A stretch of 64,000 nucleotides of DNA, taken from NCBI GenBank assembly GCA_020348985.1, contig CP070761.1, forward strand, positions 1,305,747-1,369,746, read 5' to 3'. The notes under the pieces were generated by a model. It had not been told where the DNA came from and made no database searches. It worked only from the letters and a program-made list of their open reading frames with translations. A program made the position numbers and the translations under genes. How positions within the stretch are numbered: position 1 is the first letter of the stretch; the number at the start of each line of letters is the position of its first letter. The DNA comes from Candidatus Thorarchaeota archaeon. Lineage in GTDB: Archaea > Asgardarchaeota > Thorarchaeia > Thorarchaeales > Thorarchaeaceae. This document shows, piece by piece, positions 757 through 49,056 of this stretch.

Positions 757-1932
757 TTGCCGACCAACGTTTCTCCCGAGTTTGACAGGCAAAGACAAGT
801 CTATGAAGATACTGAAGATATGGCACAGAGGATAGTAGAGCTTGAGAAGCTACTTTCTCTTGCGCCCAGACATAAGGGTGCTGAGAGAATGGTTGGGGAC
901 TATAGAAAGAAGCTCGCTGTGCTCAAGGCCAAATTGGAAAAGAAAGAGGAACAAGAACGCGCGCGGCGCAGGGGCGGTTCCGAAGAAGGTGTCATCAGAA
1001 AAGAAGGCGCAGGACAAATCTGCCTCGTCGGAGTGACGAACAGCGGCAAATCATCTTTGATAAACGCCGTTACAAATGCGGACTTCGCTGTGGGAGAATA
1101 TCCGTTTACCACGACCATTCCTACACCTGCGATGATGACGCTTGAAGATATTAACATACAACTAGTCGAGCTCCCAGGCATCTTTGAAGGAAGCCATGAA
1201 GCAGGCATAGGAAGACAGGCGCTTTCAGTGGCGCGGAATACTGATTGCATAGCAATCATTGTCGATCTTTCCAAAGACATAGAATCACAAATGTCAGTCA
1301 TCCTTTCAGAACTTGACGCAGCACGAATTCGTCTTAATCGTGAGAAGACTGCTGTCAGAATAGAAAGAGTCGGTCTAGGCGGATTGCAGGTGTTTGGAAT
1401 ACAGAACTTCGAGGGGAGTAAGGAAGAGGTCCTTGAATACTTGAAGGCTCGGAAGGTTAGCAATATCATTGTTCGATTCCAGAAACCTGCCACATTTCAA
1501 CAGCTTGCAGATGCTATGGACGCCAGTGTTGCGTACGTGCGGGCAATGATTGTTGCAACGAAAGGCGATACGAATGGGTCAATGGAAAGGTTCGAGGAAC
1601 TAGAATCTAGATACGGTGGCCGGTTTGACATAGTTCCCACATCAGTGGCACGAAACGAGAATCTTGACGGGATGAGTTGGGCCCTGTACAATCATCTAGA
1701 CATCCTTAGGGTCTACACGAAGATTCCTGGGAAGAAGAAAGAGGACAGGCCTATTGTCTTGCCTGAAGGTTCTATCGTAGAAGACGCTGCCAGCAAAGTG
1801 CACAAGGAGCTGTTTGTGGAAAGATTTCGTGCGGCCGTCATACTTCGCAAGGATGACAAGATCAAGCGAAGACAGGTTGGGCTTAACTACCCGTTGCAGG
1901 ACGGCGATGTTCTGCAGCTGATGACCAGATAG
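757..1932 (+). CDS. DRG/Rbg-family Obg-like GTPase with TGS domain
   Basis: GVTNSGKSS, YPFTT, IQLVELPG, HKGAE, C-terminal RVYTK..L.DGDVL. Confidence 0.9.
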   Translation: MPTNVSPEFDRQRQVYEDTEDMAQRIVELEKLLSLAPRHKGAERMVGDYRKKLAVLKAKLEKKEEQERARRRGGSEEGVIRKEGAGQICLVGVTNSGKSSLINAVTNADFAVGEYPFTTTIPTPAMMTLEDINIQLVELPGIFEGSHEAGIGRQALSVARNTDCIAIIVDLSKDIESQMSVILSELDAARIRLNREKTAVRIERVGLGGLQVFGIQNFEGSKEEVLEYLKARKVSNIIVRFQKPATFQQLADAMDASVAYVRAMIVATKGDTNGSMERFEELESRYGGRFDIVPTSVARNENLDGMSWALYNHLDILRVYTKIPGKKKEDRPIVLPEGSIVEDAASKVHKELFVERFRAAVILRKDDKIKRRQVGLNYPLQDGDVLQLMTR

Positions 1933-4320: not shown

Positions 4321-4577
4321 ATGCGACAGGCCTTGTGCATGCGAGATAAGTCATTCCATAGTGAAAAGTTGACGCGGGACCGAATCGGTTCCGGGAGGGC
4401 TTGACTCGGCCCGCGTAATTCAGAATGAATCGAATCAATGTAGGTGTCAATTATGTTGAGGCTTTCTGGTGTTTGAGATCGCTCTCCTAGGATAATCTCG
4501 TTGTGGAGACTTATCCGAAAGTAATGACCAAGCAGTGTAGAGATAGGCTTAAACGGGTCATTCGTGGCGACATTCTC

Positions 4578-5201
4578 ATGCAACAAGCCCCAGTGATGAT
4601 GTACTACATCGTTTTTGGACTAGGACTACTGGTTCAATTCGTTTGGATAGTCATTGGAAGAGGGGCACGCAACTCGTACTTGAGGTCCGTCACTCACTTC
4701 AGTAGACCAAGCTCCACGTTAGGCAGATTCTATACTTGGAGAATTAGTAGGGTATATCATGTCTTGCTGGAGGGGATTGCACTTGACTTGGGCATTCTGG
4801 CTGCAATGGTTGTACTTGTTTTTCCCTCAGTCAGCCTAGTTGAGATCATAGACACATTACCAATACTGGCTCTTGTGCTAGTCCTGACATTCATGAGTGC
4901 CGTTCAGGAGGCGAATCGTATTAGAGCAGTCCTGCGCGCTGAACAACATCTTCTGAGAGACATTAGCTCTGACACGGACAAAGTAGGCAGAGTCGAATTG
5001 ATTGTCGAAAGTCTTCTCTCTCAAGGCAAAATGGCTGATGGAAGTGTCTGGATGGCTCTCTTTAACATTTCACTCGTACAGAATCCAATAGGTTATGCTG
5101 TTCGGGACGTCCTTATGGAGAAGCGGAGTGAGTTTCCTCGAGCTCGCGGACCAGGAAAAGAGCCGTCAGTCAGTCCTGATAATGGCCCAGGAATCACCTA
5201 G
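4578..5201 (+). CDS. Hypothetical membrane protein (about 3 TM)
   Basis: Three hydrophobic segments; start chosen at MQQAP. Confidence 0.65.
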   Translation: MQQAPVMMYYIVFGLGLLVQFVWIVIGRGARNSYLRSVTHFSRPSSTLGRFYTWRISRVYHVLLEGIALDLGILAAMVVLVFPSVSLVEIIDTLPILALVLVLTFMSAVQEANRIRAVLRAEQHLLRDISSDTDKVGRVELIVESLLSQGKMADGSVWMALFNISLVQNPIGYAVRDVLMEKRSEFPRARGPGKEPSVSPDNGPGIT

Positions 5202-5286: not shown

Positions 5287-5571
5287 GTGTCAAAGAAAGA
5301 TGTCTTGAAAGGCCGAAAGGGCGTTGTGACAAGCTATCGCAGAGGCAAGCATCTGCAGAATCCAAACCAGGTCCTCCTAATCTTTGAGGATATCGAGTCT
5401 AGGGCAGAGGCTGCAACACTAGTCGGCAGGAAGGTCAGATGGACGTCTGCTGAAGGTCGCGAGTTCTTGGGCAAAGTGCTTGGAGTCCATGGCAACAGTG
5501 GCGTTGTAAGAGCCAAGTTCAGAACAAACCTGCCGGGTCAGGCTATTGGAACTCCTGTCGTGCTTCAGTGA
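5287..5571 (+). CDS. rpl35ae: 50S ribosomal protein eL33 (L35Ae)
   Basis: SYRRGKHLQNPNQ, GVHGNSGVVRAKFRTNLPGQAIG; GTG start inferred. Confidence 0.93.
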   Translation: MSKKDVLKGRKGVVTSYRRGKHLQNPNQVLLIFEDIESRAEAATLVGRKVRWTSAEGREFLGKVLGVHGNSGVVRAKFRTNLPGQAIGTPVVLQ

Positions 5572-5612
5572 TACCTTCATCACTTTTATCAGAAGACTCC
5601 AGCTATTTCAGA

Positions 5613-5686
5613 TGGCTCCAATGATGTTTTTTGGCTATCTGAGGGCAAAGCGCCCAGCGACGAGTCATAGTTAGACTGAGGAGCCA
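5613..5686 (+). ncRNA. Box C/D guide sRNA targeting LSU rRNA H69-H71
   Basis: 7-bp terminal stem TGGCTCC/GGAGCCA, C box ATGATG, D' CTGA, C'-like GCGACGA, D CTGA; guides complementary to UAACUAUGAC(UC) and GUAGCCAAA; TATA-like CTTTTATC about 25 nt upstream. Confidence 0.85.
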
Positions 5687-5724: not shown

Positions 5725-6321
5725 ATGATCGAGTTGGTTGCCTATCTACTTGTTTACTTCGGGGCCGGTTTTATGCTGAAGCTAGGAGATGACCTACTCG
5801 ATGAGCTTGATCGACCGGATCTTGCGTGGTATCCATTGGCCGTGTCAGGAATTTTCTTCGGTATACTGATGACAACATCAGAATGGGACCTTGTACTCCT
5901 GACCGCGATTATCATAGGCGTTCTGGCGTCAGGTAAGGTCAACAGAGCTCAGTTTCTGATTGGATTCGCATTTATCGGGTTGGTCTTTGTTCTTAGATTC
6001 ATTATCACAGACTGGACGTTAGTAGTGACCAGTTGGCTTGATTGGATGGCTCTTCTAGTATCACTGTTTCTTGCAGCTGTTCTCGACGAACTGGGAAATG
6101 ACTGGACAAATCCTGAGCTTAACCCAACAGCGTACCTGTTCTTCAAGTATCGATTTAGTCTCAAGTGCTCCGTTCTTCTGCTTGCTATCTTCTGGCCCGC
6201 ATTCCTCTTAGCTGCAATAGGACTGTGGTCATTTGACCTTGGTTATGAAACAACAGGTTGGACTTTAAGAGTCAAAGTCAAGATAGAGCTTGATAGGCAA
6301 GACTACAGCAAACGTCCATGA
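5725..6321 (+). CDS. Hypothetical multi-pass membrane protein
   Basis: About 6 TM segments, KLGDDLLDE motif. Confidence 0.7.
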   Translation: MIELVAYLLVYFGAGFMLKLGDDLLDELDRPDLAWYPLAVSGIFFGILMTTSEWDLVLLTAIIIGVLASGKVNRAQFLIGFAFIGLVFVLRFIITDWTLVVTSWLDWMALLVSLFLAAVLDELGNDWTNPELNPTAYLFFKYRFSLKCSVLLLAIFWPAFLLAAIGLWSFDLGYETTGWTLRVKVKIELDRQDYSKRP

Positions 6322-48951: not shown

Positions 48952-49056
48952 GCCGCCGTGGCTCAGTAGGTAGAGCGACAGCCTGTTATCGTACGGGCTT
49001 TTGCTTGAACGACAGAGAGTTGTTGGTCGCAGGTTCGAGCCCTGCCGGCGGCGCCA
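48952..49056 (+). tRNA. tRNA-Asn(GUU) with 29-nt intron at 37/38 (48989-49017)
   Basis: ACAGC-CTGTTA|intron|A-GTTGT; BHB with CTGT/ACAG central helix; CCA encoded. Confidence 0.93.

Follow-up and report, generated by a model that had tools for sequence, protein, structure and literature searches.

Archaeal C/D sRNAs of the dual-guide type (Omer 2000, Gaspin 2000, Dennis 2015, Lui 2018) carry four boxes and two guides of about 12 nt, which select the nucleotide to be methylated by the N+5 rule, and are closed by a terminal stem. Their two targets often lie less than 100 nt apart and have a hotspot in helices H68–H71 of the large-subunit rRNA; helices 68, 69 and 71 have been described as a hotspot of predicted archaeal 2'-O-methylation, "around E. 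coli position A1912". Close targets of this kind are common, about 45% of the Pyrobaculum sRNAs having both guides aimed within 100 nt of each other, and they have been taken as evidence for a chaperone role. The guides themselves evolve and reshuffle fast. TATA-like motifs precede only about 20% of the archaeal C/D sRNA genes covered by a published survey.

One of the described RNAs shares the register of its D guide with the element treated here. This is Sac-sR113 of Sulfolobus acidocaldarius (Dennis et al. 2015, Additional file 1), whose D guide, CUCAGAGUUACU, is followed by CUGA and pairs with helix 69, GUAACUCUGA, of the Sulfolobus 23S rRNA; read by the N+5 rule, its predicted target would be the equivalent of the same A1913, and the alignment of Dennis et al. 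2015 places the label S113 over the H69 region. In Methanococcus maripaludis, a mesophile, sRNAs such as MmasR105 and MmasR102 have a self-complementary insert between the D' and C' boxes (for example GGAA...UUCC). Among eukaryotes, the yeast 25S rRNA carries in this region Am2256 (guided by snR63), m5C2278, Am2280 and Am2281 (snR13) and Gm2288 (guided by snR75).

Asgard archaea are the closest known prokaryotic relatives of eukaryotes. Targets in helix 69 lie at the intersubunit bridge B2a, and A1913 contacts the decoding centre. A literature search of limited scope found no catalogue of Asgard C/D sRNAs, which is absence of evidence only; the DNA studied here comes from a mesophilic Asgard lineage, the Thorarchaeota. 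The window, that is, the whole stretch of 64,000 nt that was analysed, contains at positions 5613–5686 a previously unannotated element which is very probably a dual-guide box C/D sRNA, with a probable promoter of its own, and which would work with L7Ae, Nop5 and fibrillarin on A1913 and C1934 of the 23S rRNA (E. coli numbering). RNAs of this kind are ordinary in archaea. A sequence-only reading had proposed a box C/D guide RNA at this place, and anatomy, conservation, covariation and rRNA pairing agree in bearing it out for this Asgard genome; the terminal stem, C box, D' box, hairpin, C' box and D box that it listed all lie where it had put them (Table 1).

Table 1. Coordinates of the element, its parts and its upstream neighbours in the window, and of two homologues in other Asgard families (the latter in the numbering of their own loci).
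Feature	Position	Strand	Remarks
rpl35ae (L35Ae/eL33)	5305-5571	+	Pfam PF01247, 75.9 bits; TTG at 5305 probably the start codon, TGA at 5569-5571 the stop codon
BRE/TATA-like box, CATCAC + TTTTATCA	5578-5591	+	some 22-35 nt ahead of the 5' stem
Whole C/D sRNA element	5613-5686	+	74 nt; guides of 11 and 12 nt
5' half of terminal stem, TGGCTCC	5613-5619	+	pairs with 5680-5686
C box, ATGATGT (AUGAUGU)	5621-5627	+	seventh base U, consensus A
D' guide, UUUUUGGCUAU (DNA TTTTTGGCTAT)	5628-5638	+	11 nt; N+5 is G5634, predicted to face 23S C1934
D' box, CTGA (CUGA)	5639-5642	+	
Internal hairpin, GGGC, loop AAAGC, GCCC	5643-5655	+	4 bp
C' box, GCGACGA	5657-5663	+	G·A/A·G core, and G pairing with the C of the D' box, retained
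D guide, GUCAUAGUUAGA (DNA GTCATAGTTAGA)	5664-5675	+	12 nt; N+5 is U5671, predicted to face 23S A1913
D box, CTGA (CUGA)	5676-5679	+	
3' half of terminal stem, GGAGCCA	5680-5686	+	pairs with 5613-5619
Homologue in family f18	L147 (G064) 778-857		D guide to A1913, D' guide to G1945 (predicted)
Homologue in family f9	L142 (G077) 790-865		D guide to A1913, D' guide to G1945 (predicted)

The element has the parts by which archaeal C/D sRNAs are recognised: C and D boxes at its ends, joined to a terminal stem able to form a K-turn, internal D' and C' boxes suited to a second K-turn or K-loop, and two spacers close to 12 nt whose lengths are kept in the homologues. A single A separates the 5' half of the stem from the C box, and another one the internal hairpin from the C' box. 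The geometry of the C/D motif fits a K-turn, in which the stem leads into a 3-nt loop, AAU, and then into the tandem pairs G·A and A·G, followed by U·U and G-C. The C'/D' motif follows the same plan on the 4-bp hairpin, a C·U replacing the U·U. Typical archaeal C/D sRNAs have a short K-loop linker at this position, whereas the Thorarchaeota RNA has a covarying hairpin that would serve as the canonical stem of the C'/D' motif, so that a K-turn would form there and not a K-loop. The architecture had been called eukaryote-like, a description that is not supported, since symmetric dual guides of 11–12 nt are an archaeal hallmark and the D'-C' inserts of M. maripaludis mean that an internal hairpin is not a eukaryotic trait; in their guides, targets and sequences the M. 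maripaludis RNAs are otherwise different and unrelated. The minimum free energy fold of the naked RNA barely beats those of shuffled sequences (z = -1.66), which is expected because the guides must stay single-stranded, and this value is therefore counted neither for nor against a guide RNA.

Conservation delimits the element sharply. A BLAST search of 40 related genomes with a 121-nt query gave matches of 72–90% identity in the genomes of 14 other members of the family, and these begin and end at the borders of the element, the flanks showing no conservation. In an alignment of 55 distinct Thorarchaeota copies, a 9-nt core of the D guide, UCAUAGUUA, and the cores of the boxes are invariant, while the hairpin, the base pairs of the outer stem and the flanks all vary; in a single Thorarchaeota genome (G009), one A of this core is replaced by G, and there the pairing with the rRNA is kept as a G·U. 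The sequence-only reading had named a lack of box conservation as a possible refutation. The alignment shows the boxes to be conserved: the UGAUG of the C box is near-invariant with a variable seventh position, the GA core of the C' box does not change, and the D box is CUGA in 44 of the 55 homologues. The D' box is more relaxed (CUGA in 38, CCGA or AUGA in 9, degenerate in 8).

The stems are maintained by compensatory change. Both sides have changed together in 8 of the 11 stem pairs, with 92% of the alignment cells paired; this includes 5 of the 7 pairs of the terminal stem and 3 of the 4 pairs of the internal hairpin, where 95% of the cells are paired. The covariation score was reached by none of 500 shuffles, and shifting the partner by one column lowers pairing to 48–49%. 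The internal hairpin is missing in the homologue from the sister family (L016). A covariance model built from the 55 copies, R1, finds exactly one copy in 25 of 26 genomes of the family, in the genome of the window, which gives no second match, and in the one sister-family genome (1/1). Beyond these, it gives weaker but significant matches in further Asgard families (12/13 genomes of f5, 5/5 of f17, 1/1 of f18 and 4/25 of f9), and the matches are C/D sRNAs with the same D guide. The sRNA is thus conserved across the Thorarchaeota and, through its D guide, in several Asgard families.

The copies within the genus of the window are not all alike. That of G001 (L120 1501–1573) has clearly diverged, with another terminal stem and a degenerate D' box, CUUA, while that of G002 is close to the copy in the window; either the genus grouping or the function of the D' half may not be uniform.

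The 23S rRNA gene was not found in a search of the whole host genome (G000), a MAG that consists of 131 scaffolds joined by 100-N spacers and is 86% complete; a few short words resembling H69 occur in it, all within unrelated sequence. Pairing of the guides was therefore tested on the 23S rRNA of a congener and of 19 relatives from the family. In all 20 the H69–H71 region reads GGGACUAACUAUGAGUCUCUUAAGGUAGCCAAAUGCC, with three minor variants, and helix 69 reads GACUAACUAUGAGUC, closed by the pair C1910-G1920. The sequence-only reading had worked from the eukaryotic helix 69, GUAACUAUGACUC, which departs from the family sequence at the closing pair. On the family rRNA, the D guide forms 10 contiguous Watson-Crick pairs (UCAUAGUUAG of the guide with CUAACUAUGA of the rRNA), its 5' G staying unpaired; the 10-bp length foreseen by that reading stands, although the register in which the duplex had been drawn is off by one. 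The N+5 position nevertheless falls, as had been proposed, on A1913, which comes second among the A residues in the loop of helix 69 and is the counterpart of yeast Am2256. For the D' guide, whose partner is GUAGCCAAA, in the family 23S (G)UAGCCAAA, the duplex has 8 Watson-Crick pairs and a G·U at its end, and here too the proposed target, C1934, is the one reached by the N+5 rule, 21 nt downstream of the D target. Both guides have their complementarity, fifth nucleotide included, in the congener and in the 19 relatives.

Such pairings are seldom reached by chance. Only 57 of 20000 shuffled D guides attain 10 Watson-Crick pairs on the 23S rRNA, and of the shuffled D' guides only 36 of 20000 attain 8 pairs at a distance of no more than 100 nt from the D target. 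An alternative target of the D guide, at position 2308 of the congener 23S (9 Watson-Crick pairs and 2 G·U), was rejected because that site is variable or deleted among the relatives while the guide stays invariant. Predicted targeting of A1913 is well supported, whereas methylation of C1934 is probable only.

The lower grade of the second target has its reason in the D' half, which is weaker than the D half within the Thorarchaeota. It is possible, if rather unlikely, that the RNA is a functional single guide, in which only the D guide directs methylation, at A1913, while the D' half is structural, acts as a chaperone or is decaying, and C1934 goes unmethylated. Several observations would fit this. 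At least 7 Watson-Crick pairs of the D' guide are retained in 42 of the 55 homologues, but most homologues have just 7 and one G·U, and the 5' part of the guide drifts. The degenerate D' boxes (CCUA, CUUA, UAAU and similar) occur in homologues that include the same-genus G001. Changes in the rRNA are left uncompensated by the D' guide in, for example, G011 (A1937U) and G021. Yeast, moreover, has no Nm at the equivalent of C1934, position 2277, and has m5C at 2278 instead. On the other side, the copy in the window has a perfect CUGA as its D' box together with its 8 Watson-Crick pairs and one G·U, and its D' guide has the GGCUA core, whose conservation is at least 90%. In the genus g12, where the rRNA has AUA, the guide has UAU or AAU and 7–8 Watson-Crick pairs are kept. 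A compensation of A1937U by the D' guide of g12 was considered and downgraded, as the same guide base is found in G021, whose rRNA is unchanged in this respect, and the change in G011 is not compensated. The core, as GGCUAU, is also able to pair with AUAGUU of the D guide, and its conservation could be partly intramolecular.

The homologues from other Asgard families bear on both guides. In f18, where the sRNA lies directly behind rpl35ae, the rRNA reads GAGUAACUAUAAC and the guide AUUAUAGUUACA, with the paired cores GUAACUAUAA and UUAUAGUUAC. This duplex differs from that of the Thorarchaeota at 1910 and 1918, and at both positions the guide compensates for the change; the N+5 position of the f18 D guide is still A1913. 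The predicted target of the D' guide, by contrast, shifts between families, from C1934 in the Thorarchaeota to about G1940 in f5 and to G1945 in f9 and f18; this variation could again be read in favour of a single functional guide. The f5 target was assigned on the Thorarchaeota rRNA as a proxy, the 23S rRNA of the f5 genome G107 being unrecovered at H69. The D' guides of f9 and f18, however, match the lineage-specific helix 71 sequences UUGUCUAGU and CUUGCCGG of their own families, which argues that the D' half is selected for pairing with the rRNA at some place in the H70–H71 region. Guide and target thus evolve together in the D guide of f18, in the D' guides of f9 and f18 and in the G·U of G009. 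This family of RNAs offers a concrete case in which one guide stays fixed while its partner slides along H70–H71.

It has been proposed, in the sequence-only reading, that the element could be ancestral to a eukaryotic snoRNA, and its target does invite the comparison with snR63 and SNORD46, the guides for Am2256 and Am3739. For the E. coli and yeast numberings a constant offset of 343 was used, worked out by hand from an alignment of this ungapped stretch; by it, A1913 corresponds to 2256, C1934 to 2277, which carries no Nm in yeast, and G1945 to 2288. A direct evolutionary relative of snR63/SNORD46, orthologous or ancestor-like, would share with the element the target nucleotide and the guide next to the D box, GUCAUAGUUA in the SNORD46 consensus, and both are indeed shared, in the same register, Am2256 being assigned to snR63. 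The conservation of the sRNA in several Asgard families would suit such a relationship. So would the second guide of f9 and f18, since its G1945 is the Gm2288 of yeast that snR75 guides; the RNA of these families is predicted to cover A1913 and G1945, sites that are served in yeast by two snoRNAs, snR63 and snR75. In human, SNORD15 is presumably the guide for the site equivalent to G1945/Gm2288. Descent of the Asgard-wide sRNA, represented here by its Thorarchaeota form, from the same ancestral guide as snR63/SNORD46, with a compact archaeal dual guide split into single-guide snoRNAs during eukaryogenesis, is nonetheless unlikely, and a direct relative of the eukaryotic snoRNA is an improbable reading of the element itself.

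In Rfam at gathering score, the whole window gives three tRNAs only and no family at the element, and in E-value mode the element gives sub-threshold snoRNA families only, and no archaeal sR family. SNORD46 (RF00218, clan CL00061) scores 16.1 bits where its gathering score is 40, with E = 0.73 for a search of 301 nt, and the matches in the cmscan alignment are confined to the stem, the two boxes C and D and the guide. SNORD83 (RF00137) reaches 27.9 bits, also below its gathering score of 35, and the columns it matches are generic C/D features and the internal hairpin; its guides differ. The SNORD46 model has 104 positions and the element 74 nt, with no similarity detected outside the boxes and the guide, and the Thorarchaeota RNA is a compact, symmetric dual guide with an archaeal-type promoter, unlike snR63 or SNORD46. 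The identity and register of the guide are set by the target and the N+5 rule and so carry no independent phylogenetic signal. The crenarchaeal Sac-sR113 addresses the same A, as predicted, in the same register, which means that the site is older or more widespread than an Asgard-eukaryote link, or that the guides are convergent; its D' guide, CAUAAAAUAG, is unrelated, it has no internal hairpin, it comes from a different phylum, and it has no sequence similarity to the element beyond the boxes and the target-dictated guide. The fast evolution and reshuffling of archaeal guides speaks against direct relationship as well. A direct link of descent to the eukaryotic helix 69 snoRNAs therefore does not follow from the data and cannot be shown, since a universally conserved target prescribes both the guide and its register, and the guide recurs in a crenarchaeon. 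The distribution suggests that methylation of this A of helix 69 is common to Asgard archaea and Sulfolobus, where it is predicted, and to eukaryotes, where it has been measured.

The genomic setting of the element is conserved as well. The rpl35ae stop codon lies 41 nt before it, and 38 nt separate it from the next ORF, which is unannotated and encodes 198 aa. A guide-motif scan of 65 Thorarchaeota loci places it downstream of rpl35ae in at least 58 of them, within 100 nt to 1.1 kb; the adjacency to this ribosomal protein gene, which the sequence-only reading had pointed out, is conserved, rpl35ae lying upstream in all loci of the family and the sister family and in one further Asgard family. 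Upstream of the element, a box of the TTTTATC type, of the form (A/C)A(G/C)TTTTATCA, is present in 47 of the 55 homologues, in 38 of which the spacing of 27 nt is identical, unlike the majority of archaeal C/D sRNA genes in the survey mentioned above. This TATA-like box is retained where the sRNA is no longer directly behind rpl35ae. Because it keeps a fixed spacing and persists away from rpl35ae, the sRNA probably has its own promoter, with a predicted start near 5611–5614, and would not be a passenger of the rpl35ae 3' UTR; the promoter function of the box is itself read from the archaeal consensus. No oligo-T terminator follows directly after the element, so that read-through into the next gene would be possible.

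It could also be argued that the element is an L7Ae-binding K-turn that regulates the translation or stability of an mRNA, either from the 3' UTR of rpl35ae or from the 5' leader of the downstream gene for a membrane protein. Its position between the two genes, with no obvious terminator, would allow this, and one report describes L7Ae-mediated regulation of mRNAs in archaea (PMC5539422). Such an element would not need two stretches of 9–10 nt complementary to neighbouring sites of the rRNA, an invariant core or covariation of this core with the rRNA, and it would hardly keep a TATA box of its own even away from rpl35ae; regulation of an mRNA is thus very improbable as its function.

As a dual-guide C/D sRNA, the element has the proteins it would require in the same MAG, where the genes for fibrillarin (PF01269, 296 bits) and Nop5 (PF01798, 226 bits) adjoin each other in one operon and two genes belong to the L7Ae family (PF01248). 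The proposed model is that the sRNA would be transcribed from its own BRE/TATA promoter just 3' of rpl35ae and would fold with two K-turns, one of them C/D, terminal and closed by the 7-bp stem, the other C'/D', internal and built on the 4-bp hairpin. Both would be bound by L7Ae, which would bring in Nop5 and fibrillarin. In the assembled RNP, the 12-nt D guide would pair with the loop and the 5' strand of helix 69, placing the ribose of A1913 (yeast A2256) in the active site of fibrillarin for 2'-O-methylation, and the 11-nt D' guide would pair 21 nt downstream, with GUAGCCAAA, and direct methylation of C1934. As the two targets are so close, the sRNA may also act as a folding chaperone, holding H69–H71 in place during assembly of the 50S subunit. 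The known working of C/D RNAs is not changed by this element, which adds a well-supported family of C/D sRNAs for the Asgard archaea, together with its covariance model (R1), a predicted promoter and a defined pair of predicted targets at bridge B2a, of use for a census of sRNAs and for the interpretation of Asgard ribosome structures.

That short box-like motifs have merely come together by chance between two genes is effectively refuted by the conservation, the stem covariation, the invariance of the guide and the shuffle tests, even though the boxes are short and partly degenerate (a C box ending in U, a C' box reading GCGACGA) and a crude genome scan gives about as many control matches as real ones (17 real, 12 control). 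That scan looked for a box, 10–13 nt, CUGA and a 9-mer antisense to rRNA, with reversed or complemented sequences as controls; it misses the element because the C' box is degenerate, and is therefore silent on the size of the sRNA repertoire.

Some further observations concern the surroundings of the element and single homologues. The flanking ORFs, 5725–6321 (+) and 4503–5201 (+), have no Pfam family; the former resembles a multi-pass membrane protein, and in many relatives, too, an ORF seems to lie 3' of the sRNA. One of the tRNA matches in the window, at 48952–49053 (+), scores 58.2 bits in Rfam and is 102 nt long, compared with the usual 71–76 nt, and is probably an intron-containing tRNA gene. 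In two Thorarchaeota loci, L093 1820–1915 and L099 1820–1915, the D box and the 3' half of the stem occur twice in tandem, as CTGAGG..., a spacer of about 5 nt and then CTGAGGAG..., next to a degenerate D' box; this arrangement may be a small duplication of the 3' end.
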